From contig JAJCYW010000015.1 in NCBI GenBank assembly GCA_029262675.1, positions 4,662 through 68,661 of the forward strand: 64,000 bases of DNA, read 5' to 3'. Position numbers and translations under genes: made by a program. The notes beneath the pieces are model-generated. The model searched no databases and had not been told where the DNA came from. It saw only the letters and a list, made by a program, of their open reading frames with translations. Positions 2,041 to 59,740 of this stretch are shown one piece after another. Each line of letters opens with the position of its first letter. Positions within the stretch are counted from its first letter, which is position 1. The DNA is from Chloroflexota bacterium (GTDB lineage: Bacteria; Chloroflexota; Dehalococcoidia; DSTF01; RBG-16-68-14).

Positions 2041-2061
2041 CGGCCCACAACCGAATAGCGG

Positions 2062-2192: not shown

Positions 2193-2248
2193 ACGTCCGA
2201 GTACCTTCGCGCAAAGGGGGTAGGGCCAATGAAATCGGCAACCTAGAC

Positions 2249-28557: not shown

Positions 28558-28765
28558 GTGACACTCCTTTATGAACGGGCGCTTTGGGGTGGCGTCCATG
28601 CGACGCGCGGCCAGCGCCCCAACGTGGTCTGGTTCACAGAAGGTTCGTCACGCCGTGTGGTGCTCCAAGTTAGGAGAAACCCGTACGGCGGCGGACGAGA
28701 ACGCCTAAGGGATGGGCACCGTCCGTTGTCTTCTCGCCGCCGACGTGATTCACTCTCTGGTACAT

Positions 28766-38796: not shown

Positions 38797-39033
38797 GCGG
38801 ATAGAGTAGCACGCCATCCCAGTCCGTCCGCCATCGTGCTGCGATTCTAGTAGACTGCGGCGCGGATGGTGTTCCAGCGACGAGAGCAAGGGCCATACGG
38901 CCCTAGTTGACACGACAGACGGCCCACACTTACACTGGTCATATCGGTGAGCCCCGCAAAGCCTACGGGCAACGCGGCTGGGCTGTTCCAACAATCAATT
39001 CCAACCGAGCAAGCAGAAAGAAAGGACATAGTA

Positions 39034-40639: not shown

Positions 40640-42403
40640 CTACGTGCAGCGGTGGTCGAATTGCCGGATGACGCCCAGGATGTCGTTCAGCAGGTCGATA
40701 ACCCCGTCCGGGGCCGTCATGTTCCAGGCGTTCGGCCCGGCCGACGGCCCGCGGTCGTAATGCGCATCGTTTGGCGGCGCGCCGCCAGCGGCAGGGTGGT
40801 AGTGATTGATAACGCCTAAGATGTCGAATAGGAGGTCGACGACGCCGTCCTGACCCGGCCCTGAGATCGTCTCCACGTCGTAGAAGTCCCAGGGATTGTG
40901 GGGGTTGCGCCGGCCGCCCAAAGTCTCGTCCGGACCGAGTTCCTGCACATCGGTGCAGCCGTCGTTGTCATCGTCGGGGTCGGTGCTGTTGGGAATGGTA
41001 TCGCCATCCGTGTCACCGTCAGGGCCTTTCGGGGTTGGTGTCAGTGTGGGCGTGCCGCAGCCGACGTTGGCTGGGACCTTACCCGGTGGGCAGGGCGTCG
41101 GCGTTGGCGTATTCGTTGGGGTCGGGGTGAGGGTTGATGTCGGCGTTGGCGTTGGTTCCAGGAAGAGGTAGGCGGCGCTCTCGTCTGGCCCTCCGCCTGA
41201 CCATCCGTCCGCGCCCACCACGCTGGTGTAGCTACTCACTGCCACGCTCTTACCGAAGAAGGCACCCGGCTGGGAATCGGAGGCGATTAGCTTTTCCACC
41301 TCGCCCCAGTTGTCCGTGCCGCCGTGGTTGCGCTGAAACACATACGCTGCACCGGCACCGTCGCCTCCGGCATCCTCTCCCTCCGCGCCGACGATTACGG
41401 TGTCGCCGCTGATCGCGACGTTCATGAAGCCGTCTCCGGGCTGGGCGTCAGAAGCAGTAATCCTCTTCACTTCGCCCCAATTGTCCGCACCGCCTTCGTC
41501 ACGCTGGAACACAAATGCCTTGCCTGTGTCTATGCCGGCGCCAAACGTGCCGTCCGACCCGACGATGAGGGTGTCGCCACTGACCCCAACACTCCGGCCG
41601 AAGCTTTCGGCGGCCTGCATGTCAGAGGAGGTGAGCTCCTTCAGTTCGCCCCAGTTGTCTGCGCCACCTTCGTTACGCTCGAACACGATAACGACGCCGA
41701 CGCAACAGGCGCCGACGAACGTATTTGACGCCCCGACGACGACGGTGTTGCCGCTGATGGCGAGGCTCGATCCGAAGGAGTTGGCGGCCAGAGGGTTTGC
41801 GGGACTGAGCTTCTTCACCTCGCCCCAGTTGTCCGCGCCGCCCTGGTTGCGGTGGAATAGGTACGCTGCGTCGCCCCACGCCGCTATAATGGCGATGTCG
41901 CCTTCCACGGCTACGTCTCCACCGAGGCCAGAACCGGACTGTGCGTCAGAAGCGGCGAGCTTCTTCACCTCGCCCCAGTTATCAGCTCCGCCTTGGTTAC
42001 GCTGAAATACATATGCCGCGCTGCCTCCGGACACAACTGCGGTGTCACCGCTGACCGCTACGTATCTGCCGAAAAAGTCGAAGGCTAGTGCGTCGGAGGC
42101 GATGAGCTTCTTGACCTGGCCCCAGTTTTCGGTGCCGCCCTGGTTGCGCTGGAAGACATAGGCGGCGCCGGCGTATGTGAGACCAACAGTGTCGCGATAT
42201 GCCCCCACTACAGCGGTGTCACCACTCACCGCAACGCTGAGCCCGGCGCCGTCGCCACTGGAGGCGATGAGCGTCTTGAATTCGCTTGGAGCTGCTGCGT
42301 TCGCGTCCTGTTCGTGACGATCGGCGATAACGACGGTGACGCCGAGCATCAGAGTCACAAGCAGCGCAGTGATCTTTACCGTTGTGCTGAGTGATGGGGC
42401 CAT
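40640..42403 (-). CDS. Secreted FG-GAP-repeat protein with flexitail-type C-terminus (array unit 1)
   Basis: Signal peptide after GGGAG RBS; FG.SVAVSGDT...GAAYVFQRN.GG.DNWGEVKKL repeats; PT linker; conserved tail. Confidence 0.88.
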   Translation of the reverse strand: MAPSLSTTVKITALLVTLMLGVTVVIADRHEQDANAAAPSEFKTLIASSGDGAGLSVAVSGDTAVVGAYRDTVGLTYAGAAYVFQRNQGGTENWGQVKKLIASDALAFDFFGRYVAVSGDTAVVSGGSAAYVFQRNQGGADNWGEVKKLAASDAQSGSGLGGDVAVEGDIAIIAAWGDAAYLFHRNQGGADNWGEVKKLSPANPLAANSFGSSLAISGNTVVVGASNTFVGACCVGVVIVFERNEGGADNWGELKELTSSDMQAAESFGRSVGVSGDTLIVGSDGTFGAGIDTGKAFVFQRDEGGADNWGEVKRITASDAQPGDGFMNVAISGDTVIVGAEGEDAGGDGAGAAYVFQRNHGGTDNWGEVEKLIASDSQPGAFFGKSVAVSSYTSVVGADGWSGGGPDESAAYLFLEPTPTPTSTLTPTPTNTPTPTPCPPGKVPANVGCGTPTLTPTPKGPDGDTDGDTIPNSTDPDDDNDGCTDVQELGPDETLGGRRNPHNPWDFYDVETISGPGQDGVVDLLFDILGVINHYHPAAGGAPPNDAHYDRGPSAGPNAWNMTAPDGVIDLLNDILGVIRQFDHRCT

Positions 42404-42524
42404 GATGATGCTCCCCGCGTATCGCCGGGAGTGGGTGGGGCGTACGCCCGACGAAGTGATCTGGGCCACCGCCATCGGAGGCCGTCAGTGGCCTCTATGT
42501 TACAGGAATACCCGCGTTTGTCAA
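42404..42524 (-). promoter_or_regulatory. Conserved array promoter + leader, copy A
   Basis: TTGACA (42524-42519), N16, TAACAT (42502-42497); GAGGCC-N6-GGCCTC; anti-SD hairpin. Confidence 0.75.
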
Positions 42525-42657
42525 CCGGACGAGGCGGCCTTCACCCGGTCCACCGTCACCCCTCTCCCTGAGGGTGAGAGGGGCGACACGTTGCATAGCC
42601 TTGCGTGTGGCATGCGGCCAACCGATGCCGCTGCGTGACTCTAGGTGCAACCTACGG

Positions 42658-43761
42658 TTATATGCAGCGGTCGTTGGCCTGCTGAATGACCCCCAGGATG
42701 TCGTTGAGCAGGTCGATGCTGCCGTCCGGGGCGGTCATGTTCCAGGGATTTGGGCCCGCGGACGGTCCCCGGTCGTAGTTCGCGTCATAGGGTGGGTCAC
42801 CTGTCGGCGCATAGTGGTTGATGACGCCGAGGACGTCGAACAAGACGTTGATGTTGCCGTCGTGACCCGGCCCTGAGATCGTCTCCACATCGTAGTAGTC
42901 CCAGGGGTCCAAGAAGTCTCGCAGGCCGCCGAGCGTTTCGTCCGTGCCGTTCTCTCGCTGGTCGGGGCAGCCATCGCCGTCGGTGTCGGTGAGGTCAGGC
43001 GTTGGTGTGGGCGTACCGCAGCCACCATAGGTTGGTACCTTACCCGCAGGGCAAGGCGTGGGTGTTGCCGTGGGAGTTGGCGTGGGCGTGCCGCAGCCGC
43101 CGATTGCTGGCACTTTGCCGGCCGGGCAGGGCGTCGGCGTCGGCGTGATCTGGCTCGTGCAGTTCACTAACAGGGTGCTGCCCGGAACGGCGATTAGACC
43201 GCTAATGACAGACTGGAAGGCGGCGCCGCTGGTTCCGGCGATCGGGCCGCCGAGCGTCTCCAGATCGATCTGGTGGGAACTCGCGCTAGGCGTGCAGGTG
43301 AACGTGAAGCTGAACAGGCTGCCCTTGTACTGGCTGACATTATAGGGGCGAAGCACCAGACAACCGCGACCGGCGGTGGTGGCCGTGGACGTGCCAAGGT
43401 CTGTCCATGGCTCGCAGTCGGGCCACACGGTGGTAGACTGCTTGAACGTCAGGCCGCTCGCCCCAAAGACCAGAAACGCCTGGGCGCCGTCGTAGCGATC
43501 GCTGAACGGAACGGCGTCAGCGTTGACGATGACGTCGAACATGGCGCCTAGCGGCACACACGTCTCGCTGAGCACCTTAGTGCCGGGGCAAACATGCGTA
43601 TCAGCCGGATCGACATAGATACTCATCGCCGCGCCGTCTACGGCTGAATGAGCTGTATCGATCCCTTGGCCCGCCGTCAGGAACATGCCGGCGACTGCTA
43701 CGACGACGACGGCTACGAGCAGCGCCGCGGCCTTGAGGGCCGTGTTTCGCGAAGGGGCCAT
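42658..43761 (-). CDS. Secreted cohesin-like-domain protein with flexitail C-terminus (array unit 2)
   Basis: Signal peptide; beta-sandwich pattern VPLGAMFDVIVNAD...GAQAFL.F...LFSFTFTC...IDL...VNC; doubled CP.GKVP..GGC linker; tail. Confidence 0.82.
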   Translation of the reverse strand: MAPSRNTALKAAALLVAVVVVAVAGMFLTAGQGIDTAHSAVDGAAMSIYVDPADTHVCPGTKVLSETCVPLGAMFDVIVNADAVPFSDRYDGAQAFLVFGASGLTFKQSTTVWPDCEPWTDLGTSTATTAGRGCLVLRPYNVSQYKGSLFSFTFTCTPSASSHQIDLETLGGPIAGTSGAAFQSVISGLIAVPGSTLLVNCTSQITPTPTPCPAGKVPAIGGCGTPTPTPTATPTPCPAGKVPTYGGCGTPTPTPDLTDTDGDGCPDQRENGTDETLGGLRDFLDPWDYYDVETISGPGHDGNINVLFDVLGVINHYAPTGDPPYDANYDRGPSAGPNPWNMTAPDGSIDLLNDILGVIQQANDRCI

Positions 43762-43882
43762 TACTATTCTCCCAACGAATCGCCGGGAAGGCGCGGGGCG
43801 TGCGCCCGACGATGCGTGCTGGGCCACCGCCAGCGGAGGCCGTCAGTGGCCTCTATGTTACAGGAATACCCAGGATTGTCAA
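43762..43882 (-). promoter_or_regulatory. Conserved array promoter + leader, copy B
   Basis: TTGACA (43882-43877), N16, TAACAT (43860-43855). Confidence 0.75.
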
Positions 43883-43922
43883 CCGGACGGGGTGGCGACG
43901 CAGGGCGCCGCGTTGCGCAACT

Positions 43923-44141
43923 CTAGGTGCAGTCGTGGTCGAATTGCCGGATGACGCCGAGGATGTCGTTCAGCAGGTCGATGGCTCCGTCTGGTGCCGT
44001 CAAATTCCAGGCGTTCGGCCCGGCCGACGGCCCGCGGTCGTAATGCGCATCGTATGGCGGCGCGCCGCCAGCGGCAGGGTGGTAGTGATTGATGACGACT
44101 AAGATGTCGAACAGCAGGTCGACGACGCCGTCCGGACACTT
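43923..44141 (-). pseudogene. Orphan flexitail 3' fragment (72 codons + stop)
   Basis: KCPDGVVDLLFDILVVINHYHPAAGGAPPYDAHYDRGPSAGPNAWNLTAPDGAIDLLNDILGVIRQFDHDCT*; has no start of its own. Confidence 0.85.
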
Positions 44142-44984
44142 CTAGCTCTCTTCCGCCTTTCGCGCCGACGTATACCCGAACCAGCCACCTGGCAGCGACG
44201 ACTCGTAGTCGGTGTAGCCCAGCGTTGCCAGTTCTTCGCCCAGCCACGCAAGCGGCACAAAGTGCAGCTGGAAGCGTCGCTTCATCCAGCGTTTGACGCC
44301 CGCCCGCGAGTCGTTCGGCCGCTGGCTGAAAGTGCTGGCGGCCAGTGTGGCGCCTTTCGCGCTCACGCGGCCGATCTCGGCCAAGGCCTGAGCCAAGTCG
44401 GGGAATTGGTGAAAGCCACCGGAGCAGTTCACCTTGCGAAGGCACTCGTCGGCCAGAGGCAGGCGATGTGCATCGCCACGAATCAGTAGCACGTTGGCCA
44501 GGCCCCAGCGGCTGGCGTGACGCGCGGCGCGCGCCAGCATGGCCTTCGATATGTCCAACCCGATGAGCAGCCCCTCAGGTCCCACACGCTTGGCCCACTC
44601 GACAGTGAAGTTGCCGTGCCCACACGCCAGGTCCAGGACGGTATCGCCTGCCTGCACCTGCAACCTCTGCTGAATCTGTGCAACCTCCTCAGGAAAGTCG
44701 GGGGTGCCTAGCGCCCGAGTGAGCCATCCGCGGAAGCGGTCGTAGCTCCAGGCGGTGAGGGGAGTGTCGAGGAGGTGCTGAGTCGCGGTCTTCTCCAGGG
44801 TATCTCCCAGCACGTCGAGTACGCCGTCACGATATGGGTAGGTTGTGCTCGTCGCTGAGCAGCGCAGGCCGGAGCCGTCCGGCAACACCTCTGGCGGCCG
44901 GTCGGGCGATGTCGGCAGACGCAGCAGCGGGGCGGCGCGCACCAGCAAAAGCCGGGCTCGGTCCGCGGGCATTGCTGGCGGCAT
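44142..44984 (-). CDS. Class I SAM-dependent methyltransferase with Trm112-like N-terminus
   Basis: VLDLACGHG, GLDISKAML, RGDAHRLP; YP.RDGVLD N-terminal module; no signal peptide. Confidence 0.88.
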   Translation of the reverse strand: MPPAMPADRARLLLVRAAPLLRLPTSPDRPPEVLPDGSGLRCSATSTTYPYRDGVLDVLGDTLEKTATQHLLDTPLTAWSYDRFRGWLTRALGTPDFPEEVAQIQQRLQVQAGDTVLDLACGHGNFTVEWAKRVGPEGLLIGLDISKAMLARAARHASRWGLANVLLIRGDAHRLPLADECLRKVNCSGGFHQFPDLAQALAEIGRVSAKGATLAASTFSQRPNDSRAGVKRWMKRRFQLHFVPLAWLGEELATLGYTDYESSLPGGWFGYTSARKAEES

Positions 44985-45108
44985 GTTTCTAGCTCCCCAC
45001 GTATCACCAGGAGTCGTCGGAGGACGACGCTCGCGGCGTATGACTGGCCACCGCCAGCGCAGTCCGTCAGTGTGACCCCCACTATACAGCGGGGTCTGAG
45101 AATGTCAA
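44985..45108 (-). promoter_or_regulatory. Conserved array promoter + leader, copy C (in front of the methyltransferase)
   Basis: TTGACA (45108-45103), N16, TATAGT (45086-45081); CTCCTGGTGATACGTGGGGAG hairpin over the RBS. Confidence 0.7.
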
Positions 45109-45148
45109 CCGGACGAGGCGGCGACACGGGGCGCCGCGTTGCGCAGCT

Positions 45149-46960
45149 CTACGTGCAGCGGTGGTCGAACTGTCGAATGACGCCGAGAATGTCGTTCAGC
45201 AGGTCTATGGCTCCGTCCGGGGCGGTCATGTTCCAGGGGTGGGGGCCTGCGGATGGCCCGCGGTCGTAGATCGCGTCGTACGGTGGCGCGCCGGTGGGGG
45301 CGTAGTGGTTGATAACGCCGAGGACGTCGAAGAGAAGGTCGACGACGCCGTCCGGCGCGGGTCCGCCGATACCGCCGACATCGTAGAAGTCCCAGGCGTT
45401 CATGTAGTTCCGCAGGCCGCCAAGCGTTTCGTCGCTACCGTTCTCGCGCTGGTCCGGACAGCCGTCGCCGTCGGTGTCGCCGGGGAACGGCTGCTTCGTC
45501 GGCGTGGGAGTGACGGCCGGTGTCGGCGTGGCAGTGGGTGTGGATGCCGGCGTGACGCATCCGCTGGTGGGGCAGGGCGTGGGTGTGACGGCAGCGATGG
45601 TGAGTATGTCGGTCGCGGCGTCTGACACGTGGCCGAAGTGGTTTGTCGACCGCGCGCCAAAGCTGTGCGTGCCGTTCGGCACAGCGGACGATGGTGTGAA
45701 TATGTAGGTCTCCAACTCTTCGTCGAAGGCGCCGCCATCGGGCGAGACGCCGTCCGTTGTGAATGTGCCGCCGTTTAGGTTCCACTCCGCCGCCGCGACG
45801 CGCGAAATCGAGACAGCGGCCGCTGTCCCGTGGTCGCCTCCGCCGATGACACGCGGGCCCTCCGGCGGGAACGCGGTGTTGCCGGCGGACGCGGAGTAGG
45901 TGGGCGTGTCGTCCGCGGAAGGATCGGGCGCGTAGGGCATTACGGAGGCCGTGGACGTGCGGACGACATCGACGACGGAGCCGACCGGGTTGCGCCAGCC
46001 GATGGCGCGCCTGGCGCTGTCCGAGACATCGACGGCGGGGTTGAGCTGCTCGGCGGAACTACCCATGATGGAGAGGTCTGATGTGTCGCCGCCGTTGTTG
46101 CAGGAGTCGTTCGCGGAGTTGAGGTAACCCCAGGAATCCGCGGTTGAGCAGCTGGACGAGGCGTATTCGTCGAGCGCGCCGAAGATGTGGCCGGTCTCAT
46201 GCGCGGTGACAAGGTCCATGTTGCCGATGCCCCAGCCGTCGTTGTCGTAGGTGAGGACCATGGCGGGGCCGTTCAGGAATGCGAAGGCAAACTTGCCGTC
46301 GGTGAACACACCGTCCCCGTCGTTCAGGCTGTCGACGACGAAGATGATGAACCCCCAGTCGGTGGCCTTCGCGGCGCGACGGTCGTTGATAAAGGCGTAG
46401 GCGCCCGCGACCCAGTCGGCCGGTGTCGACGGGTAGCCGAGGGCGGTGAGCGTATCGGCGACCCAGAGGTCGAGGTCTGTCGCGGGCCGGGAGATCGGCT
46501 CGCAGGAGGTGGGCTGGGCGCCGTGGTCGTCGACGACGAAGCTGAGCGGATCGGGCCGGCCTGTGCGGGAGGTCCAGAACGAGAGGCCGCCCGCGATCTC
46601 GGCGAGGACGGTGGCGCGGCGGGCACCGTCCCAGTCCTCGCTCTCGGCGTCCGGGGGAGCGCATTCGCCGACGCCGCCGCTCGATTCTACGAAGACGACG
46701 CTGTAGGTGGCCGAGCCGGCCATGTAGGAGGCAAGCTGGAACGCGGTGGGCGCGCTGCCGAGTAGCGCGGGCTGGACGGGCGCGGGTGGCGGTAGGAGGA
46801 AGTCGGGTCCGGATGGCATGGTCGGTGGCGGCGCCGGGACGCCGGCGCTGGCGGACGGCGGGGCGGTGCCGTGTACGCCCGACATCAACAACAGTGCTGT
46901 TAGGGCCAACGCGATGAACGCTGCGGCCCTGGCGGCTGTGCGAAGTCGGTGCTCATGCAT
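45149..46960 (-). CDS. Secreted zinc metalloprotease (metzincin-like) with flexitail C-terminus
   Basis: AHETGHIFGALDEY zinc motif, SIM Met-turn, signal peptide, tail; GGAGG RBS. Confidence 0.85.
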   Translation of the reverse strand: MHEHRLRTAARAAAFIALALTALLLMSGVHGTAPPSASAGVPAPPPTMPSGPDFLLPPPAPVQPALLGSAPTAFQLASYMAGSATYSVVFVESSGGVGECAPPDAESEDWDGARRATVLAEIAGGLSFWTSRTGRPDPLSFVVDDHGAQPTSCEPISRPATDLDLWVADTLTALGYPSTPADWVAGAYAFINDRRAAKATDWGFIIFVVDSLNDGDGVFTDGKFAFAFLNGPAMVLTYDNDGWGIGNMDLVTAHETGHIFGALDEYASSSCSTADSWGYLNSANDSCNNGGDTSDLSIMGSSAEQLNPAVDVSDSARRAIGWRNPVGSVVDVVRTSTASVMPYAPDPSADDTPTYSASAGNTAFPPEGPRVIGGGDHGTAAAVSISRVAAAEWNLNGGTFTTDGVSPDGGAFDEELETYIFTPSSAVPNGTHSFGARSTNHFGHVSDAATDILTIAAVTPTPCPTSGCVTPASTPTATPTPAVTPTPTKQPFPGDTDGDGCPDQRENGSDETLGGLRNYMNAWDFYDVGGIGGPAPDGVVDLLFDVLGVINHYAPTGAPPYDAIYDRGPSAGPHPWNMTAPDGAIDLLNDILGVIRQFDHRCT

Positions 46961-47075
46961 CGGCTACCTCCGCTGGGCGACGCGCTCTGGCCGGTACCTG
47001 GCGCACGCCGCTGGACGCAGTGTAGCGCTTGCGTGGGGCTACGCGTTGCGTAGCTCTACGTGCAGCCTCCGGCCG

Positions 47076-49229: not shown

Positions 49230-49348
49230 GATCGCACTCCCTGTTGCGTCGCCAAGGGTGTGGGACGAGCGCCTGACGACGCATGCCAGGGCACTGCCAT
49301 CGGAGGCCTCAGTGACCCCTACTATATAGAAATGCTCAGGTTTGTCAA
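49230..49348 (-). promoter_or_regulatory. Conserved array promoter + leader, copy D
   Basis: TTGACA (49348-49343), N16, TATAGT (49326-49321). Confidence 0.75.
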
Positions 49349-49465
49349 GCGGACGGGGCGGCGTGCAGCGCCCTCACGCTTTTCGCCCTCACCCCAAGCC
49401 CGCGTACGGCGGGCCGCCCTCTCCCTGAGGGAGAGAGGGGGACCGAAAACAGTCGTGGTGGGCGA

Positions 49466-51229: not shown

Positions 51230-51349
51230 GACAAAGCTCCCAAAGTATCGCCAGGAGTGCGCGGGAACAGCGCCTGGTGCCGTATGCCAGGCCGCTGCCA
51301 TCGGAGGCCTCAGTGACCCCTACTATATAGAAATGCTCAGGTTTGTCAA
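51230..51349 (-). promoter_or_regulatory. Conserved array promoter + leader, copy E
   Basis: TTGACA (51349-51344), N16, TATAGT (51327-51322). Confidence 0.75.
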
Positions 51350-51421
51350 GCGGCCCGGGTGGCCGGGGTCCCTCACCTCCAGCCCATCTTCCACTGGGAG
51401 AGGGGCTGGGGGTGGGTAGCT

Positions 51422-54400
51422 TTACGTGCAGGTGTGGTTGCCCTGTAGCACCACGCCCAGGATGTCGTTCAGGAGGTCTATCACCCCATCCGGTCTGGTC
51501 ATATTCCAGGCGTTGGGGCCAGCGGACGGTCCGCGGTCGTAGTTTGCGTCGTACGGAGGCGCGCCGCCAGCGGTGGGCTGGTAGTGGTTGATGACGCCGA
51601 GGATGTCGAACAGCAGGTCGACGACACCGTCCTTGCCCGGGCCTGAGATCGTCTCCACGTCGTAGAAGTCCCATGCGTTGAGCGGGTTGCGGAGGCCGCC
51701 GAGCGTTTCGTCGGTGCCGACTTCTGCGGCGTTGGTGCAGCCATCGCTGTCCTCGTCGTCGGCGCCGTCCGAGACCGTGTCGACGTCTGTGTCGGCGTTC
51801 GTTGGGTCGTTGCCGGTGAGGTACTCGCCGAGCAGGTTGAGGCCGTCCGAATCGAAGTCGTCGGTGGCGAGCGGAGCGTTGGAGCCGAAGTACCAGCGCT
51901 CGAAGGCGTCGACGACGCCGTCGTTATCGACATCGCCGTCGGGGTCCGTTGCCAGGTCTTCCGCGACGTGGAGCATGGGGACGAAGCGCCACTCCGCCCA
52001 GGTCTTGTGAAGGCTGGTCATGTGGAAGTCGGGGTTGCCGTCGGTATCGGCGAAGCCGCTCTGGCCGAGCGGGAAGATCATCTCTCCGAGGACGGTGGGG
52101 CCGACCTCCACGATCTGCTCGTAGTGGCCGCGGTTGCCGATCGGCGTCGTGTCGAACACGAGCTGCGGGTAGATGGCGGACAGCGGATGGATGTAGGTGC
52201 TGTCCGGCCTGGCGATATCGGCCGGGATGCCGCCGTTCGCGGTGGCGACGGCGGAGAGGGCATCGCGGACGACGACGCGCCAATCGCTGCCGTTGAAGTA
52301 GTCGCCGGAGTAGGCTTGCCCGTAGGCGCCCGCGGGGCCGCCGGCTGCGGAGTCGATAGCGTGCTGGATGATGTCGAGTCGGATGTCCTTGGAGTTGCCG
52401 CTAACGCTGACAGACGTGCCGGAGAACTCGTCGGTGTAGATGTCCGTGTAGAGCTCGTCGATCAGGTCTTCGAGGAACACCAGCTCGCCCGCGATCAGGG
52501 TGTCGTTGACGGGATCGACAAAGCCGCGGCCGAAGAACGGGCTGCCGATGTGCGCCTCCAGCGCGGCGAGCGTGGTGTCGACGGCCGGGTTGCTGCCATT
52601 GCCGACGCCGTCGACGGCGAGGCGTAGGCGGGGGATCAGGTAGCGGCCGAACGCTCCCTTGGAATCGAGGCCGGAGACGTCCATGTTGAGCTGACGCTGT
52701 TCGTCCCGCGTCCAGGTGCTGTCGGCGGCCAGGCGCTCCAGGATGAAGATGTTGCGCTGCTGGCGGCCGAAGAGGCGGCCATCGTCCGCGGTGGCGGCCT
52801 TGTTGTTCCAGTTGGAGGTGTAGCCCTGGGGCGGGTTGATGGCTTCAGGCATCGCGACGATCTCGTAGATCTCGTAGAGGTCGCCGGCGGACGGGGCCAG
52901 GCCCCAGTCTTCTTCCAGCGTGAGCGTGTCGTTGGTGTTGCTGGCGATGCGGCGGGTCTGCTTGTAGCCATCGCCGCCGGTGATGGTGACGATATACTCG
53001 CTGCCCTTCAGCGTCGGGTTGTCGAGGCGGAAGTTGAGTGCAGGCGCCGAGTAGTCGGCGGCCGTGAACGCGGCTGTATCTGTGAGCGTGCCTGCGGCGG
53101 CGCTGCCGACTGTGCCGCTGACGACGACGAGCTCGTTGGCGACGGTGCCGTCGAGCGGCAGCCGGGTGTCCGTCGGCGTGCCGCCCTGGCGGACGCGCGA
53201 GAACCCTGTCGAATAGAAGCCGGTGTTGCCCGCTCCGGCGCCGATATTCGTGCCGGTGCCGTTGAAGGCCTTGTTGTCGGCGGAGATGAAATTGTGCGTG
53301 GTGGGGATCAGGCGCGCGCCGGCGCGGATGTCGAGCACGTCCTCGGCGCGCTGGAAGAGCGAGAAGCCGTGGGCGGCGGTCGATTCCTCGAGCCAGTAGG
53401 CGCGTTCGCGGGACGTGATGACGATGTCGTTGCCGGACTGGACGGCGACGTACTCGGACGTGGCGTCGGGCGTGGTGGTCCAGGCGTCGCCGCCGCCGAG
53501 TGTGAGTGTGTCGTTGGTGCTGGAGAGGACGGAACGGATCTGGCCGGCGCCCGTGCCTTCGACGATGGCGACGTAGCCAGCGGCGAAGCCGGCGGCGAAC
53601 TTGCCGGCGTCCGTGAGTGACGTGGCGGTGGCGCTATCCGCGGTGCCGCCGGCGTCGCCCTGGAAGCTGGAGACGGTGCGGGAGCCGCCGTTGCTCACGC
53701 GCTCGTGTGTGCGCCAGATGGTGATGGGCGTGGTGGAGCCGTTGGTGGCCGTGATCAGCTCAGTGCGCCCGCTTATGGTCGCCGGCGTGCCCTCATCGTT
53801 GTAACGGATGGCGTCCGCGTTCTCGAGCACGGCTGCGTCCAGGTAGAAGTCCTCGTTCTTGAGCTGCGCGGTGGTGCTGGTCCAGGCGACGGAGTCGGTC
53901 TCGCCGATCAGGATGGCGGGCGCGCCGGCGAAGGCCATGCCGCGCGCTTCGATGCGGTGGTCGGCGCCCTCCGCGCTGCGGGTCTCGACGAAGTGCATGA
54001 TCGACGGCGTCTGGATGCCGGTCTGCGGGAAGCCGCCCACATAAGGATTGCCGCTAGCCGAACGGTCGCCGTCGATCATCCAGGCGTAGCTGCCGAGGGC
54101 CGGCCAGGCGCCGAGCGAGCGAGCGAACTCTTCGCGGTGGGGGTCGACGTTGGCATCGGGATCGATGAGGTCGCCGGAGTTGTTGCCGGGGAGGGCGCCG
54201 GCCATGCCTGCGTAATCCGGCTGCGGGGCGGCTTGGCGCTGCGAGAGAGGCCCGCCGAATCCGGGCGCGGTGGCGTCCGGGATGGAGACGGGGGCGAGCG
54301 GGTCGGTGAGGAAGTTGAGGTCGTCCCAGATCTCGCTGCCGATCGTGGCGCCGTACTTGGCAACCAGGCTGTTCAACTCGTTCAGCCGGGAGACTTCGCC

Positions 54401-55045
54401 GAAGTTCTCGCTGCCGAAGTTCCGGACTTGGAGCACGGCGACGGCCATCACCATCTCCGGCGTGTACTGGAAGCCGCCGTTGGGGCGTAGCGGGTCCGCG
54501 CCGCCCGGCGCGAGGTAGTTGGGATCGGCCTGGTCGGAGATGTTCGTGGCGTTGCCGAAGAGGTCGTCGCCGAGGCCGAGGAGCTGGAGGAGCGCGACCT
54601 CGGCAGGCTTCGGCTCGTTGCCCGCGTAGACCTCCTCGATGGTGTCGTTGACGCCCTTGGCGTACTCCAGCAGCAGAGTCTTGATATCGGTGGGCAGCTT
54701 GTCGTACATGCCGTTGAGTTCTGAGGACGTGTAGCCGTTGGCGCGGACGCCGACGTCGTCGCCAAACGTTCCGGGGTCCAGCGCGCCGAAGGCCTGGAAG
54801 AGCGTGCCGCGGCCGACGCGCCCGAGGAAGATGAGCTGGCCGAGCCGGTCCTTGGCGACTTCGCGGCCGTACTCGCGGACGAGCTCGAGGTCGGTATCGG
54901 CGTAGATGTGCGGCAGGCCGAAGGCCGGTTCGCGGAAGACGATGGCGCTGGTCGCGGCGTTAGCAGGCTGGTGGCCGTCGCCGATGGCGACGATGGCGGA
55001 GAGCGCTGCGATGACGGCGAGGAGTGGTAGCGAGAAGCGGATCAT
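51422..55045 (-). CDS. Secreted penicillin-acylase family (Ntn hydrolase) protein with flexitail C-terminus
   Basis: FGLPHIYA, DRLGQL, GSYAW.I...RSASG.P, AWTSTT, NWNNK, GQSG; tail. Confidence 0.8.
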   Translation of the reverse strand: MIRFSLPLLAVIAALSAIVAIGDGHQPANAATSAIVFREPAFGLPHIYADTDLELVREYGREVAKDRLGQLIFLGRVGRGTLFQAFGALDPGTFGDDVGVRANGYTSSELNGMYDKLPTDIKTLLLEYAKGVNDTIEEVYAGNEPKPAEVALLQLLGLGDDLFGNATNISDQADPNYLAPGGADPLRPNGGFQYTPEMVMAVAVLQVRNFGSENFGEVSRLNELNSLVAKYGATIGSEIWDDLNFLTDPLAPVSIPDATAPGFGGPLSQRQAAPQPDYAGMAGALPGNNSGDLIDPDANVDPHREEFARSLGAWPALGSYAWMIDGDRSASGNPYVGGFPQTGIQTPSIMHFVETRSAEGADHRIEARGMAFAGAPAILIGETDSVAWTSTTAQLKNEDFYLDAAVLENADAIRYNDEGTPATISGRTELITATNGSTTPITIWRTHERVSNGGSRTVSSFQGDAGGTADSATATSLTDAGKFAAGFAAGYVAIVEGTGAGQIRSVLSSTNDTLTLGGGDAWTTTPDATSEYVAVQSGNDIVITSRERAYWLEESTAAHGFSLFQRAEDVLDIRAGARLIPTTHNFISADNKAFNGTGTNIGAGAGNTGFYSTGFSRVRQGGTPTDTRLPLDGTVANELVVVSGTVGSAAAGTLTDTAAFTAADYSAPALNFRLDNPTLKGSEYIVTITGGDGYKQTRRIASNTNDTLTLEEDWGLAPSAGDLYEIYEIVAMPEAINPPQGYTSNWNNKAATADDGRLFGRQQRNIFILERLAADSTWTRDEQRQLNMDVSGLDSKGAFGRYLIPRLRLAVDGVGNGSNPAVDTTLAALEAHIGSPFFGRGFVDPVNDTLIAGELVFLEDLIDELYTDIYTDEFSGTSVSVSGNSKDIRLDIIQHAIDSAAGGPAGAYGQAYSGDYFNGSDWRVVVRDALSAVATANGGIPADIARPDSTYIHPLSAIYPQLVFDTTPIGNRGHYEQIVEVGPTVLGEMIFPLGQSGFADTDGNPDFHMTSLHKTWAEWRFVPMLHVAEDLATDPDGDVDNDGVVDAFERWYFGSNAPLATDDFDSDGLNLLGEYLTGNDPTNADTDVDTVSDGADDEDSDGCTNAAEVGTDETLGGLRNPLNAWDFYDVETISGPGKDGVVDLLFDILGVINHYQPTAGGAPPYDANYDRGPSAGPNAWNMTRPDGVIDLLNDILGVVLQGNHTCT

Positions 55046-55216
55046 GGTCACGTCTCCCATGTTGCGTTGGGTGCTGTGTTCGCGGCGGGGTGTCTCTGTC
55101 TGCGGAGGTTGCACACGTGGAAGCGGATGCGACCTCCCGTTAACAGACGCGTCAGTATAGCGGCCGTGTCAAGCGAGCGAGCGGATGACGGTAGGCGGTT
55201 AGCGTTGGACCCGGTG

Positions 55217-56350
55217 CTACCTGCAGTCGTGCCCTTGCTGGAGGATGATGCCCAGGATGTCGTTGAGGAGGTCGATGCTGCCGTCCGGCGCCGTCATGTC
55301 CCAGGCGTTGGGGCCTGCGGATGGTCCGCGGTCGTAGTTCGCATCGTACGGTGGGTCGCCGGTAGGCGAGTAGTGGTAGACGACTTCGAGAACGTCGAAC
55401 AGCAGGTCGATGACGCCGTCCTGACCGGGTCCTGAGATCGTCTCCACATCGTAGAAGTCCCAGGGGTCCAAGAAGTTTCGCAGGCCGCCGAGCTTTTCGT
55501 CCGTGCCGTTCTCTCGCTGGTCTGGGCAGCCATCGCCGTCGGTGTCGGTGAGGTCAGGTGTTGGCGTGGGCGTACCGCAGCCACCGTAGGCTGGTACCTT
55601 ACCCGCAGGGCAGGGAGTGGGTGTTGTCGTGGGGGTTGGCGTGGGCGTGCCGCAGCCGCCGCTAGCCGGAACTTTACCCGTTGGGCAGGGTGTCGGAGTC
55701 GGCGTGATTTGGCTCGTGCAGTTTACCAGCAGCGTGCTGCCAGGAACGGCGATGAGTGGGCCACCATCGGGAGGCCAGAATGCGGCGCCGTAATTACCGG
55801 CATTCGGGCCGCCGAGCGTCTCCAGATCGATCTGGTGAGAGCTCGTGGTAGATGTACACACGAACTTGAAGCTGAAGAGGCCGCCCTTATGCAGGCTAAC
55901 CGGCAGCGGAGGGATTAGTCCGAGCAGACACGAATTGCTGACGTCCGTCCCGCCGGACCCAGCAACAGCGGCCCCGAGCGTCACGCAGTCAGGCCAAAGG
56001 ATCTCCGGGCTGAACCCCCAGACTTTGACGGTGAGGCCTGTGGCGCCAAAATGCAGCCAAGCCTGGGCGCCACTGTAGCCAGGGGGAGAACCGCTGAGCG
56101 GAACAGCGTCAGCGCTGACGATAACGTCGAAGGTGGCGCCCAGCGGGACGCACGTCTCTCCCAATAACTTCGTGTCCGGGCAGGGGTGTGTGTCGGCGGG
56201 GTCGACAGCGATACTCATCGCCGCGCCGTCCACGGCTGAATGGGCCGTATTGATTTGCTGGCTCGCCGACAGGAACGTGCCAGCGATCGCGACGACGACG
56301 AATACGAGCAGCGCGGCTACCTTGAGAGCCGTGTTTGGTGATCGGGCCAT
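55217..56350 (-). CDS. Secreted cohesin-like-domain + flexitail protein, paralog of 42658-43761
   Basis: Same framework (TAHSAVDGAAMSI.VDPADTH.CP.TK...SHQIDLETLGGP.AG..GAAF...IAVPGSTLLVNCTSQIT). Confidence 0.82.
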   Translation of the reverse strand: MARSPNTALKVAALLVFVVVAIAGTFLSASQQINTAHSAVDGAAMSIAVDPADTHPCPDTKLLGETCVPLGATFDVIVSADAVPLSGSPPGYSGAQAWLHFGATGLTVKVWGFSPEILWPDCVTLGAAVAGSGGTDVSNSCLLGLIPPLPVSLHKGGLFSFKFVCTSTTSSHQIDLETLGGPNAGNYGAAFWPPDGGPLIAVPGSTLLVNCTSQITPTPTPCPTGKVPASGGCGTPTPTPTTTPTPCPAGKVPAYGGCGTPTPTPDLTDTDGDGCPDQRENGTDEKLGGLRNFLDPWDFYDVETISGPGQDGVIDLLFDVLEVVYHYSPTGDPPYDANYDRGPSAGPNAWDMTAPDGSIDLLNDILGIILQQGHDCR

Positions 56351-56471
56351 GATTGTACTCCCAACGTATCGCCAGGAGCTCGCGGGCCGCACGCCCGGCG
56401 AAACGCTCTGGGCCACCGCCATCGGAGGCCTTCAGTGACACCTACTATACAGGAGTGCCCACATTTGTCAA
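56351..56471 (-). promoter_or_regulatory. Conserved array promoter + leader, copy F
   Basis: TTGACA (56471-56466), N16, TATAGT (56449-56444). Confidence 0.75.
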
Positions 56472-56585
56472 CCGGATTGAGCCGCGGCGCGGCAGACGAC
56501 CCTTACGCTCTTCGCCCTCACCCTAGCCTGCGTACCGCGGGCCGCCCTCTCCCTGGGGGAGAGAGGGGTGACGCGTTGCGTAGCT

Positions 56586-59492
56586 TTACGTGCAGCGGTG
56601 GTCGTACTGCTGAATGACGCCCAGGATGTCGTTCAGCAGGTCGATCACTCCGTCCGGCGCGGTCATGTTCCAGGCGTTGGGCCCTACTGAAGGGCCGCGG
56701 TCGTAGGCCGCGTCGTAGGGTGGGGCACCTGTGGGCGAGTAGTGGTTGATGACGCTTAGCACGTCGAACAGGAGGTCGACGACGCCGTCCTGGCCCGGCC
56801 CTGAGATCATCTCCACGTCGTAGAAGTCCCAGGGGTTCACGTAGCCGCGCTGCCCGCCCAGCGTCTCGTCAGGGCCACTCTCGGTCACGTCGCTGCAGCC
56901 GTCGCCGTCGGTGTCACCGGGGTCGGGCTGCATGGTGGGCGTGGCCGTGGGCGTGGGTGTGGGCGTGGGCGTGGGCGTGACCGTGGGTGTGGGCGTGACT
57001 GTGGGTGTGGGCGTGGCCGTGGGGCACGGCCCGCCGCAAGGCGTGGGCGAGGGCGTGGGTTCCTCGAAGACGTATGCTGCACCGGCGAATTTGCCCCCGG
57101 TAGCCTCGCCGTGGGCCCCCACAACGGCGGTGTTACCATTGACCGAAACGCTTGCGCCGAACCAGGCGGAGGCTTGGGCGTCAGAGGCGAAGAGCTTCTC
57201 CATTTCGCCCCAGTTTTCCGCGCCGCCCTGGTTACGCTGGAAGACGTACGCAGCGCCAGCGCCGTTGAGGGGGTTGCCTGTGCCAGCATCCTCTCCTACT
57301 GACGCGACGACAGCGGCGTCGCCGCTAACCGCCACGCCTCCACCGAACTGGTCGCCGGCCTGGGCGTCGGAGGCGGTGAGTTTCTTCACCTCGCCCCAAT
57401 TGTCCGTGCCTCCCTGGTTACGCTGGAACACATATGCCGCGCCGGCGGAGTCGCCCGCCGCATCCTCAGCAAATGCCCCGATGACGGAGGTGTCGCCGCT
57501 GACCCCCACGCTGTAGCCGAACTGGTCGTCGGCCTGAGCGTCGGAGGCGGTGAGCTTCCTCACCTCGCCCCAGTTGTCCGTGCCTCCCTGGTTACGCTGG
57601 AAGACGTATGCCGCGCCGGCGTCGCTGCCCCCGGCATCCTCGTTCTGCGCCCCGACGACTGCGGTGTCGCCGCTGACCGCCACGCCTCGGCCGAACTCGT
57701 CGTCATCCTGGCCGTCGGAAGCGATCAGTTTGCTTACCTCGCCCCAGTTGTCCGCGCCGCCCGCGTTACGCTGGAAGACATATGCCGCGCCCGGCTTAAC
57801 GCCAATGCCCCCGTCACCCTCGTTTTGCGCCCCGACGACAGCGGTGTCTCCGTCAATCGAAACGCTTGCGCCGAACCAGTCGAAGGCTTGAGCGTCGGAG
57901 GCGTAGAGCTTCTTCACCTGGCCCCAGTTGTCCGTGCCGCCCTCATTGCGCTGGAAGATGTATGCCGCGCCGGCGTTTGCGCCGGTATGATAGAGCTTAA
58001 GGTTGGCCAAGTAGTCCGCCCCGGTTATGGCGCCGGACTGATCCACATCCACCTGGCCATTGATGATGTCCATCTGAACAGTGCCCGTGGAGGAGCCGTC
58101 CCGGTAATTCAACTGCACGTTCGTCAAGTCGTCGGCCGCGGTTATGGCGCCAGACTGATCCACATCCACCTGGCCGTCGATGATGTCCACGTCGACTGCA
58201 CCGCCGCCAACGAGAGGCATGAACACGTCGGCCATGTCGTCTGCCACGAGCCCGCTGCTGATGTGCGTCGTCTGGGCGCTGCCTGAGTGCCCCCCGGGAG
58301 TATCAAGGTATGCGTTGACGATGGCGGTGTTGCCGCTAACCGCCACGCGGAAGGCGAACGAGTACTGCTCGGCGGGCCCGTCGGAAGCCGTGAGCTTGGC
58401 CACCTGGCCCCAGTTGTCCGCGCCGCCCTGGTTTCGCTGGAAGACGTAGGCGGCTTGCTTGTTGTATGCACCCACGACGGCGGTGTCGCCGCTGACCGAC
58501 ACGGTGTAGCCGAAGACGTCGTAGGCCTGAGCATCGGAGGCGAGGAGTTTTCTGATCTCGTTAAACCGCGGCGGAGGTGTTGGGGTCGGAGTTGGTGTAG
58601 GAGGGCATGGCCCGCCGCAAGGCGTTGCGGTGGGCGTTGGCGTGGGTGACGGTTGGGGCGTTGGGCCACTGAGACAATTGATCTGGGCGTTTGCCAGCGA
58701 TGGCGTGTACGCAATGCCGGGTCTGGCTACAAGCACGCTGTGGCTGCCGGCATCTGTCAACGTGATGTTGGCCGTACCCATGGCATGGCAGGTGAACTCG
58801 AACTGGGCGTGCGGCCCAGTGCCGGACCATGTTGGCTGCGAAGGCAGGACGGTGAAACCGGCGACTTCGATGTAGGCTTCGCTCCCAACGCCATCGTCAC
58901 TCGGGCCGAGCACTGGGCCAGTTGTGTTACCAGTAGCTGGGTGCTCTGGCCACGTGTTGTTTGTACCAGCCGGGATGAGATCAAGCAGGGCTTCGTCCCA
59001 GTGCAGACGCACACCGTAGCCGGAAAGCGTGCCCGGGTTGGATGTCACATGAACGCTGACTATGAACGAACCAGCGCCGTCCACAGAACGTTTCGTTTCG
59101 ACCGTGTCGCTAGCACTCGTGGACTCTCCCAACGCGTCCACGGCCAATGCGCCACCCGCAGGAGTCGACTTCGGCAGAGGCGTGTTGGTCTGGCATGACG
59201 TGGACGATCCGAATTGCTGGACCGCACCGAGGATGTCAATCAGCAGGTCAACGACGCCGTCCTTGTTCTGGTCTGCTTGCTTTGGCGGCGGCGGGGTGCC
59301 ACCTGGGGCGTAGTGGTCGGAAATGATGATCACATCGATCACCTCAACGACGCCGCTGCCATCGACGTCGGCGCAGCCGCTGGCGGCGGAGGCAGGGTGA
59401 ACCGACCCCGGCTGCGACGCTAACGTCGCTAGCAGGGCGATCGCGCCCGCAAGAATCAGAAACGCGGAACCGATGAGTGTCTTGTGCCGCAC
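56586..59492 (-). CDS. Secreted multidomain protein: dockerin-like + cohesin-like + FG-GAP propeller + flexitail
   Basis: N-terminal CADVDGSG.V...D / ADQNKDGVVDLLIDILGAVQQFG; SFIVSVHV....LSGYGVRLHWDEALL...FEFTC...GTANITL; FG-GAP repeats; long PT linker; tail. Confidence 0.85.
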   Translation of the reverse strand: MRHKTLIGSAFLILAGAIALLATLASQPGSVHPASAASGCADVDGSGVVEVIDVIIISDHYAPGGTPPPPKQADQNKDGVVDLLIDILGAVQQFGSSTSCQTNTPLPKSTPAGGALAVDALGESTSASDTVETKRSVDGAGSFIVSVHVTSNPGTLSGYGVRLHWDEALLDLIPAGTNNTWPEHPATGNTTGPVLGPSDDGVGSEAYIEVAGFTVLPSQPTWSGTGPHAQFEFTCHAMGTANITLTDAGSHSVLVARPGIAYTPSLANAQINCLSGPTPQPSPTPTPTATPCGGPCPPTPTPTPTPPPRFNEIRKLLASDAQAYDVFGYTVSVSGDTAVVGAYNKQAAYVFQRNQGGADNWGQVAKLTASDGPAEQYSFAFRVAVSGNTAIVNAYLDTPGGHSGSAQTTHISSGLVADDMADVFMPLVGGGAVDVDIIDGQVDVDQSGAITAADDLTNVQLNYRDGSSTGTVQMDIINGQVDVDQSGAITGADYLANLKLYHTGANAGAAYIFQRNEGGTDNWGQVKKLYASDAQAFDWFGASVSIDGDTAVVGAQNEGDGGIGVKPGAAYVFQRNAGGADNWGEVSKLIASDGQDDDEFGRGVAVSGDTAVVGAQNEDAGGSDAGAAYVFQRNQGGTDNWGEVRKLTASDAQADDQFGYSVGVSGDTSVIGAFAEDAAGDSAGAAYVFQRNQGGTDNWGEVKKLTASDAQAGDQFGGGVAVSGDAAVVASVGEDAGTGNPLNGAGAAYVFQRNQGGAENWGEMEKLFASDAQASAWFGASVSVNGNTAVVGAHGEATGGKFAGAAYVFEEPTPSPTPCGGPCPTATPTPTVTPTPTVTPTPTPTPTPTATPTMQPDPGDTDGDGCSDVTESGPDETLGGQRGYVNPWDFYDVEMISGPGQDGVVDLLFDVLSVINHYSPTGAPPYDAAYDRGPSVGPNAWNMTAPDGVIDLLNDILGVIQQYDHRCT

Positions 59493-59539
59493 TGTGCACC
59501 GCCTTACGCCTACATGGCAACATATGCTTACCGGCGGGC

Positions 59540-59597
59540 CACCGGCATCGGAGGCCGTCAGTGACCTCTACTATATAGGAATGCCTGGACTTGTCAA
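59540..59597 (-). promoter_or_regulatory. Conserved array promoter, copy G (leader diverged downstream)
   Basis: TTGACA (59597-59592), N16, TATAGT (59575-59570), GAGGTCACTGACGGCCTCCGATG. Confidence 0.72.
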
Positions 59598-59740
59598 CCG
59601 GGCGGGGTGGCCGCTACGTGCGGAGAGAAGGGGCGCATCGCGAAGCGCCCCGACGGGTGCGCGGTAGCCGCGCCGCCACACACTAAAGTGTGTGCCTCCA
59701 GCGTGATAGCCACGCCGCCACACGCGAAGAGTGAGTGGCC

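Follow-up and report, generated by a model that had tools for sequence, protein, structure and literature searches.

A tandem array of flexitail protein genes with shared promoter blocks and unrelated cargo in a Chloroflexota bacterium

We analyzed a stretch of 64,000 nucleotides (nt) from a Chloroflexota bacterium (assembly GCA_029262675.1, contig JAJCYW010000015.1, positions 4,662 to 68,661), hereafter the window, which carries nine long co-oriented open reading frames (ORFs), g1 to g9, on the minus strand between positions 40640 and 59492. An earlier reading of the letters (the original prediction) had described a cassette-like array, in which a constant promoter and leader and a constant C-terminal "flexitail" enclose variable cargo, and had proposed that the two constant arms are recombination handles for swapping, capturing and amplifying that cargo. 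The flexitail itself is a known family (NCBIfam NF041520, "flexitail domain-containing putative surface protein"); what is new here is the nine-unit tandem arrangement with its shared promoter/leader, together with the comparative data. The genes are the following.

40640-42475, minus strand: g1, FG-GAP propeller, Pro/Thr-rich (PT-rich) linker and C-terminal flexitail (Pfam FG-GAP_2, E = 4.6e-69; NF041520, 145.1 bits, residues 501-610)
42658-43827, minus strand: g2, cohesin-fold domain, two CPxGKVPxxGGC linker motifs and flexitail (NF041520, 137.6 bits; AlphaFold2 (AF2) model; no Pfam match)
43923-44141 (approximate), minus strand: flexitail remnant, about the last 70 residues (NF041520 match behind the methyltransferase gene)
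44142-44984, minus strand: g3, class-I S-adenosylmethionine methyltransferase, not fused to a tail (Pfam Methyltransf_31, E = 6.1e-22)
45149-46960, minus strand: g4, metzincin-like protein with flexitail, without the shared promoter block (Reprolysin_2, E = 6.4e-4, below cut-off; NF041520, 143.5 bits)
47076-49229, minus strand: g5, FG-GAP propeller, CARDB and flexitail (FG-GAP_2, E = 1.3e-123; CARDB, 26.5 bits, cut-off 22.7; NF041520, 143.4 bits)
49466-51301, minus strand: g6, FG-GAP propeller and flexitail (FG-GAP_2, E = 2.2e-100; NF041520, 145.3 bits)
51422-55114, minus strand: g7, penicillin-amidase-type N-terminal nucleophile hydrolase, TSP3-like Asp-rich repeats and flexitail (Penicil_amidase, E = 3.6e-48; NF041520, 137.7 bits)
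55217-56422, minus strand: g8, paralog of g2, cohesin-like domain and flexitail (NF041520, 141 bits; cargo domain 68% identical to that of g2)
56586-59492, minus strand: g9, dockerin-like N-terminus, beta domain, FG-GAP propeller and flexitail (FG-GAP_2, E = 2.1e-103; NF041520, 153.8 bits)
38947-40458: L1, flavin adenine dinucleotide (FAD) oxidase gene

The nine co-oriented tails that had been described, eight intact and one fragmentary, are all recovered. NF041520, a 107-position model with a cut-off of 40 bits, matches the extreme C-terminus of the eight long minus-strand ORFs other than g3 (8/8) over profile positions 1-107, with 137.6-153.8 bits and E-values of 2.5e-40 to 2.2e-45, and in all eight proteins the match stops one or two residues short of the stop codon. 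The ninth, partial flexitail lies directly behind the stop codon of g3 (profile positions 37-107, 86.7 bits, one TAG within the match). The cargo assignments are backed by Pfam, with FG-GAP_2 in g1, g5, g6 and g9, CARDB in g5, Penicil_amidase in g7 and a methyltransferase in g3. The metzincin of g4 is less firm, the Reprolysin-type match being weak and below cut-off, with an HExxHxxGxxD motif read by eye in the translation. The N-terminus of g9, as opposed to its tail, matches Dockerin_1 at residues 42-82 (E = 4.1e-5; 25.4 bits, above the Pfam cut-off of 22.9), and its beta domain weakly resembles the cargo of g2 (hhalign E = 4.3e-4, probability 34%).

The eight flexitail proteins have hydrophobic, signal-like N-termini such as M..SLNATVKI.ALL, suggesting that they are secreted or surface-type proteins. 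Their PT-rich linkers also contain a mini-motif, C-P-x-G-K-V-P-x-x-G-G-C, with seven copies in g1, g2 (two), g5, g6 and g8 (two), for example at 41034-41110 and 42995-43146. Across the genome this motif occurs 12 times in nine ORFs, seven of which are flexitail ORFs, and it may form a small disulfide loop.

Seven of the nine units start with the same promoter block, as originally described, and both consensus sites and an nhmmer profile identify them.

42399-42539, minus strand: g1 promoter/leader block; TTGACA, 16 nt, TAACAT; leader of about 95 nt, GGGAG before ATG
43757-43897, minus strand: g2 promoter/leader block; core 92% identical to that of g1
44983-45123, minus strand: g3 (methyltransferase) promoter/leader block; most diverged copy
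49223-49363, minus strand: g5 promoter/leader block; 59 nt of exact identity with the g6 block
51224-51364, minus strand: g6 promoter/leader block; nhmmer profile and consensus match
56346-56486, minus strand: g8 promoter/leader block; nhmmer profile and consensus match
59520-59612, minus strand: g9 promoter and first part of the leader; profile positions 2-79 only

The seven minus-strand sites consist of TTGACA, 16 nt, and TATAGT or TAACAT, which agree with the sigma-70 consensus at 10-11 of 12 positions, and are predicted at 42524, 43882, 45108, 49348, 51349, 56471 and 59597; eight promoter-like sites were found, against 2.2 +/- 1.4 in shuffles. The block is present in g1, g2, g3, g5, g6, g8 and g9 and absent from g4 and g7, the latter having an upstream region of its own, different from the shared block. 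Separate promotion of the units, also part of the original prediction, is predicted for these seven of nine, each with its own sigma-70-like site. Behind the promoter, a leader of about 95 nt common to the units ends with GGGAG, 7-8 nt and ATG. The start codons of the longest ORFs fall within this leader, and the real starts are likely to be the ATGs further downstream, which open onto the signal-like N-termini; for g1, the likely start is an internal ATG at 42403, behind a GGGAG Shine-Dalgarno sequence. The remaining leader and signal-coding part is far less alike between units than the promoter cores. The nhmmer profile recovers the same seven window copies strongly, plus seven weaker copies on other contigs, four of which precede flexitail ORFs.

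We also considered the leader as a structured RNA and rejected it, since RNAalifold on 10 leaders gave -7.8 kcal/mol with a covariation term of -0.3 and two covarying pairs, which is too weak. An Rfam scan of the window at gathering thresholds found nothing in the array; its sole match is a cobalamin riboswitch (RF00174, 63.4 bits, 2052-2201, plus strand), upstream of a prenyltransferase-like ORF and genes for an energy-coupling factor/ATP-binding cassette (ECF/ABC) transporter. Just upstream of the next promoter, at three of nine junctions (42559-42581, 49416-49438 and 56544-56566), we observe a 23-nt palindrome, CCCTCTC..CCC...GGG..GAGAGG, which occurs 15 times in the genome, 12 of them elsewhere, and could be an element of the repetitive extragenic palindromic (REP) kind or a terminator hairpin lacking the T-tract.

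For the tail domain, we built our own hidden Markov model (HMM), which recovers 44 full tails in the genome under study (G000), and used these for the alignment and the pairwise comparisons. The alignment shows an invariant DxDxDGCxDxxE loop first, then a GGxR motif and a first loop-helix, YDV...DG[VI][VI]DLLxDILGVI, for which some members of the family have YDVNGDGVIDLLNDIL, a loop of the EF-hand or dockerin type. It continues with a PPYDxxYDRGP spacer, a second PDGVIDLLNDILGVI loop-helix and a final invariant Cys. The domain contains two invariant Cys residues and no hydrophobic segment of its own.

The flexitail is by no means restricted to the array. In G000, NF041520 matches 55 times, spread over many contigs and frequently in small clusters, and two contigs end inside one. 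Each of the 15 other genomes of its family (f1) contains 14-54 matches, the rest of the order is patchy (f4 2/2, f5 1/4, f2 0/5, f3 0/4) and the control genomes have none (0/14). A database search returned at least 305 proteins at E <= 0.001, from Chloroflexi or Chloroflexota wherever an organism is given, with FG-GAP, RCC1, subtilase, amidase, pyrroloquinoline quinone (PQQ) dehydrogenase, esterases and cohesin among the cargo. Among the remaining 36 flexitail ORFs of G000, the cargo includes M28 and S8 peptidases, another amidase and PD40, NHL/VWA, SBBP, beta-helix and FG-GAP domains, 21 of the 36 having no Pfam match at 1e-5, and in one ORF of 2138 amino acids (aa) the flexitail is internal. 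By this genomic profile, the flexitail appears to be a general C-terminal tag of extracellular proteins. In the accessible portions of the literature we found no paper on the NF041520 domain, papers on a "flexitail" being concerned with an antibody fusion tag, and none on dockerins or cohesins of Chloroflexi that deals with it.

The tails had been called very similar in DNA, which is generous. Among the 28 pairs of window tails, DNA identity ranges from 0.733 to 0.845 (mean 0.781) and protein identity is 0.77, compared with a mean DNA identity of 0.711 between window tails and tails elsewhere in the genome; identical tracts between window tails have a median length of 22 nt, and the longest is 43 nt. 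By the Nei-Gojobori method, the median synonymous divergence (dS) of the window tails is 0.74 (range 0.43-1.07) and the median nonsynonymous divergence (dN) is 0.17, indicating purifying selection on the 3' arm as a protein domain. Because the GC content at third codon positions (GC3) of the tails is 0.83-0.88 and saturation is early, we also asked how often identical residues are encoded by the same codon. For the window tail pairs this same-codon fraction is 0.666, against 0.523 expected from codon usage, whereas the amidase body gives 0.695 between G000 and its same-genus relative G001, and 0.566 between G000 and a further relative, G011. The value for the tails is near that of the same-genus ortholog, which suggests that they are about as old as the genus. 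The youngest pairs by this measure, g9-g5 (0.77) and g8-g2 (0.75), are slightly younger.

We compared the locus with that of relatives, namely G001 (92% complete), G013, which belongs to another genus, G011 and G004. Orthologs of the g7 amidase occur in all four, with 75-82% DNA identity. In G001, the genes of the right flank (a short-chain dehydrogenase/reductase (SDR) dehydrogenase and an HlyD-type adaptor) directly adjoin the amidase ortholog, without g8 and g9 between them, and an FG-GAP/flexitail gene is found on the ortholog's other side. In G013, the genes of the left flank (a TauE exporter and a 5'-3' exonuclease) border the amidase ortholog at its tail end, without L1 and g1-g6 between them. 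Near the ortholog of L1 in G011, G013 and G004, no flexitail ORF was found within the surrounding 6-20 kilobases (kb). This gene order suggests that the amidase-flexitail gene g7 is the conserved core of the locus, and that the G000 array either expanded on both sides of the amidase or shrank in the relatives. With DNA identity of no more than 75-82% between orthologs, such rearrangements could have been infrequent. Tails with the synonymous divergence of ordinary old paralogs and a stable gene order had both been named beforehand as speaking against recombination handles; we find the first, and the gene order is not stable.

The methyltransferase unit deserves particular attention. No g3 methyltransferase was found at E <= 1e-20 in 10 family relatives, G001 included (0/10). 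The gene has no signal-like N-terminus and keeps a complete, diverged promoter/leader with the Shine-Dalgarno sequence and the start position. With the unit's promoter in front and half a tail behind, g3 looks like a foreign cytoplasmic gene that replaced the cargo and half of the tail and would now use the unit's expression signals. Its 3' junction lies inside the flexitail and destroys the domain, a pattern that resembles illegitimate recombination more than an exchange by way of intact arms.

A different replacement is observed in G001, in which the amidase ortholog (body 82% identical in DNA) has a C-terminal hydrophobic stretch and a basic end in place of the flexitail, with a remnant of the second half of the flexitail just behind its stop codon (G001:C61, 11910-15347 and 15260-15541). 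An exchange of the tail for a membrane-anchor-like end is expected if the tail keeps the enzyme at the cell surface. Before the amidase ortholog, the G001 spacer contains a further copy of the 3' end of the adjacent dehydrogenase gene.

The constituent parts of the units do not always share one history. In five of the eight window units, the nearest-neighbour tail also comes with related cargo, that is, with a top-three cargo match (FG-GAP in g9, g5 and g6, the cohesin fold in g2 and g8), and such pairing is predicted by whole-gene duplication. The tails of g2 and g8 are sisters, with a Shimodaira-Hasegawa-like approximate likelihood ratio test (SH-aLRT) value of 96. Nevertheless, g2 combines cargo and tail akin to those of g8 with a promoter core akin to that of g1, and genome-wide the similarities of tail and cargo are uncorrelated (Spearman 0.037, 946 pairs), the tail neighbour being among the top three cargo matches for only seven of 44 proteins. 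The incongruence between promoter, cargo and tail that the original prediction had suggested looking for is therefore present.

Several weak lines of evidence point to the flexitail being a dockerin/EF-hand/TSP3-like module. The AF2 model of the tail has long helices at residues 57-68 and 102-112, and an aligner independent of Foldseek placed seven of 48,161 chains at Z >= 2, all of them dockerins from cohesin-dockerin complexes. Sub-threshold Pfam matches among the 44 tails include Dockerin_1 in 10 (best E = 0.023), EF-hand_6 in nine, EF-hand_1 in six and TSP3_bac in six, and the Atlas feature neighbours, which serve as leads only (scores 0.86-0.89), are labelled Dockerin_1, TSP_3 and EF-hand. 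A sequence search of the PDB with the tail profile gave only recoverin and calmodulin-type EF-hand chains, which are not significant (E = 0.33-2.7). It is plausible that the flexitail works like a dockerin, possibly with calcium bound in its loops; membership of the dockerin family is not shown.

The cohesin-like cargo of the original prediction is confirmed by a fold model. The AF2 model of the g2 cargo (predicted local distance difference test (pLDDT) score 79.9) matches 2vo8_A best, with Z = 15.5 and a root-mean-square deviation of 2.2 over 134 of 135 aligned residues; the top 18 VIA rows are all cohesins (Z = 11.4-15.5), and the best Foldseek cohesin has an E-value of 1.6e-7. As modelled, the g2 cargo domain clearly has a cohesin fold, and g8 shares the domain at 68% identity, even if neither cargo matches Pfam Cohesin (PF00963) at E <= 5. 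An HMM of the g2-type domain finds about 35 ORFs in G000, some with two or three copies and several with a flexitail. Above the Pfam cut-offs, the genome further contains 62 Dockerin_1 and 16 Cohesin matches, and an ORF of 1891 aa on contig C10 has at least five cohesins. The cohesin-fold modules of the genome, including the g2 and g8 cargo, are thus candidate partners of the flexitail.

The cohesin-dockerin repertoire of G000 is large for a non-clostridial genome. At about 175248-188100 (minus strand), C10 carries some seven neighbouring ORFs with the g2-type domain, one of which (977 aa) has two to four copies and a canonical dockerin. Separate multi-copy ORFs, at C3 152768-155413 and C18 136563-140693, are one of 882 aa with three copies and one of 1377 aa with two. 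These multi-copy ORFs are candidate scaffold proteins. The window itself also encodes an RCC1-repeat protein with a C-terminal canonical dockerin (28712-30286, plus strand; 29.8 bits, over cut-off).

Several likenesses link the flexitail with type I dockerins (PF00404; complexes such as 1ohz, 2vn5 and 3ul4). In both, a loop followed by a helix occurs twice, some flexitails having loops of the DxNxDG type, and both are attached to many unrelated extracellular cargos; moreover, dockerins are the only fold neighbours found, at low Z-scores, in a genome rich in cohesin folds (PF00963) and canonical dockerins. Differences are the length of the flexitail (107 aa, compared to about 60), its extra N-terminal DxDxDGCxDxxE loop, its two invariant Cys residues and the approximately 35 residues between its repeats.

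Taken together, the array is probably a tandemly grown and diversified family of separately transcribed genes, eight of which encode surface-docked flexitail proteins. Each would follow one plan, with a promoter, a leader of about 95 nt, a hydrophobic signal-like N-terminus, variable cargo, a PT-rich linker and the flexitail. The latter would be a folded C-terminal module in which a DLLxDILGVI helix comes after each Asp-rich loop of the EF-hand type, and its most likely job would be to hold the cargo at the cell surface by docking on a partner, in the manner of a dockerin. The array would have grown around the conserved amidase-flexitail gene by duplication of whole units, with occasional recombination replacing cargo, tail or promoter core, including the methyltransferase event that halved a tail. 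The arms would be kept for their own functions, the 5' arm for the start of transcription and translation and for export, the 3' arm for docking, and their similarity would merely permit exchange, at a low evolutionary rate.

A number of observations weigh against this reading. Regarding docking, the pLDDT of the flexitail model is low to middling (63.6), Foldseek finds no PDB match for it at E <= 0.001, its dockerin Z-scores are only 2.0-2.7, none of the 44 tails reaches the gathering score of Pfam Dockerin_1 (PF00404, 22.9 bits), and hhalign against 40 of the genome's own canonical dockerins gives E = 0.0083 with a probability of 4.8%. Export itself is read from N-terminal sequences only. 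Other data suggest a role for recombination in the tails. The promoter cores are mosaic, with 97% identity between the adjacent g5 and g6 and 92% between g1 and g2, compared with 74-83% for the other pairs among g1, g2, g5, g6, g8 and g9 and 49-69% for pairs with the g3 copy. Two unlinked genes, at C17 119923-122112 and C10 226836-228971, share only the 350-nt tail, at 90.6% identity. In a tree of 94 tails drawn from four genomes, tails of one genome also tend to group together, with 23 label changes versus 50.9 in shuffles (as low in 0 of 200), the relatives being partly sampled (19 of 30 tails for G001; 31 for G011 and G013 together). In this tree the three orthologous amidase tails do not form a clade, forcing them into one costing 69.7 log-likelihood units with a marginal p-value of 0.0375 in the approximately unbiased (AU) test. 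A two-genome tree of 63 tails places all eight window tails, with their unrelated cargo, in a 22-row group from G000 only (SH-aLRT 90). Finally, in population data from four DNA runs of one biofilm study, which cover the stretch with short contigs at about 2-8x depth, one contig from a single run links the g4 tail (position 45270) with the g6 tail (position 49588) over an identical tract of 43 nt.

Some of these points can be specified further. The C17 and C10 genes both have a window-type leader, and the boundary of their similarity is sharp at the start of the domain, one cargo being a propeller with FG-GAP and the other an unrelated CSLREA-type glycine-rich repeat protein. Similarly, three neighbouring genes on contig C5 have tails 86-88% identical, and the nearest-tail partner of each has no detectable cargo similarity. 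Such near-identical tails on unrelated cargo suggest that tails, or cargos, have been exchanged, in some cases after the genus split. In the trees, the amidase tail of G011 falls inside an 11-row G011-only clade (SH-aLRT 99), that of G000 falls among G000 paralogs, and the window tails mix with tails from other contigs in the 22-row group instead of forming their own clade. Amino-acid identity between tails is 0.68 within G000, 0.71 within G011, 0.64 within G001 and 0.57 within G013, compared to 0.56-0.64 between genomes, so that the within-genome excess is clear only for G000 and G011. The contig joint has a shorter side of 85 nt, with 43 nt ambiguous, and may reflect a deletion variant or else a chimera made in assembly, the latter given the depth of 4 and the crossing of a 43-nt repeat. 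Of the 10 listed contig joints, the other nine were discarded as artefacts of repeats or of other organisms, their shorter sides measuring just 20-22 nt.

One explanation for the clustering, which we regard as possible and do not favor, is that gene conversion or repeated tail replacement across the whole genome keeps the tails of one genome alike, as concerted evolution and not as a device of this locus. It would account for the orthologous amidase tails sitting with the paralogs of their own genome (SH-aLRT 99 for G011; AU p = 0.0375), for the two unlinked genes that share only a 90.6% identical tail and for the three C5 tails, 86-88% identical, whose nearest-tail partners lack cargo similarity. 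However, the clustering is mostly at the amino-acid level and clear for G000 and G011 only, same-codon fractions barely differ (0.58-0.62 within genomes, 0.55-0.57 between), and for only 51 of 94 tails is the closest partner in the same genome better than the closest in another. The AU test gives a marginal p-value, the tails of the relatives are partly sampled (19 of 30 for G001), and third positions are near saturation, so that synonymous sites by themselves say little about concerted evolution. The clustering fits old conversion or replacement followed by synonymous decay, or else parallel co-evolution with a genome-specific partner, and the data do not separate these; species-specific clustering is also known for dockerins. 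Far less probable, in our judgement, is the dedicated diversification system of the original prediction, with 5' and 3' arms conserved as handles for frequent cargo swapping, capture and amplification. Units were indeed gained or lost between relatives (g8 and g9 are not found in G001, nor L1 and g1-g6 in G013, between the flanks and the amidase), a 5' block and half a tail flank a methyltransferase for which 10 relatives gave no match, the relationships of promoter, cargo and tail disagree, and one contig joins the g4 and g6 tails. The array also resembles an integron cassette array in its co-oriented units, in the unrelated cargo between recurring blocks and in one apparently captured foreign gene. 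The part of the prediction that saw a locus of change thus stands, as units differ between relatives and one foreign gene appears to have been captured, whereas no dedicated or frequent exchange mechanism was seen. The tails are 73-85% identical with dS of 0.43-1.07, and their identical tracts are short (median 22 nt). As a selected domain found on about 50 dispersed genes and in every family relative (15/15), the 3' arm needs no recombination role to be conserved. In agreement with the original prediction, we found no recombinase, that is, no integrase or transposase family among the 34 flanking window ORFs (Pfam, E <= 1e-6) or the three nearest flank genes (NCBIfam), one conserved flank gene being the 5'-3' exonuclease, and repeated recombination sites were not found either. 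The tail is cut by the methyltransferase junction, rearrangements may be rare given that DNA identity to the relatives is about 80%, and the contig joining g4 and g6, at depth 4, may be a chimera. Unlike in an integron, no integrase was found, seven of the nine units have their own promoter-like site, and the recurring blocks are a promoter/leader and a coding domain, 73-85% identical, and not recombination sites. Integron cassettes are typically promoterless.

Another alternative concerns the job of the tail, which might be a sorting or secretion signal that is read, and perhaps removed, by a dedicated export or attachment machinery, instead of a docking module that binds a cohesin-like partner. 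We consider this unlikely, even if less so than the recombination handles. Like the C-terminal sorting domains of type IX secretion (CTD), PEP-CTERM and LPXTG, the flexitail is one constant, lineage-restricted C-terminal tag that ends dozens of otherwise unrelated secreted proteins in each genome; the amidase ortholog of G001 has a hydrophobic C-terminal anchor in its place, and the NCBIfam name says only that it belongs to putative surface proteins. However, PEP-CTERM is paired with exosortase and LPXTG with sortase, and we know of no partner enzyme of the flexitail; no co-occurring enzyme turned up, in analyses that included no search aimed at one. The flexitail also contains neither a hydrophobic segment or helix nor a short motif of its own, resembles a folded domain with calcium loops and two invariant Cys residues, has dockerins as its sole fold neighbours and is internal in one ORF of 2138 aa. 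Within the docking interpretation, we tentatively consider a further step, namely that the flexitail is a third, divergent dockerin-like class which, with a large set of divergent cohesin-fold modules, forms a self-assembling, non-cellulosomal surface network in this Chloroflexota family. If so, tails would co-evolve with their partner or be homogenised by conversion, explaining the genome-specific tails on orthologous proteins.

The array illustrates that an arrangement of constant arms and variable cargo can be an ordinary tandem paralog family, whose arms are kept because of what they do as protein and as promoter. For the flexitail, a curated family without a described function, the dockerin/EF-hand link, the cohesin fold, the anchor swap and the clustering by genome suggest a testable role. 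This proposed role is that of a docking tag for the large surface proteome of an uncultured Chloroflexota family. If it is true, assembly of the cohesin-dockerin type would reach well beyond cellulosomes.

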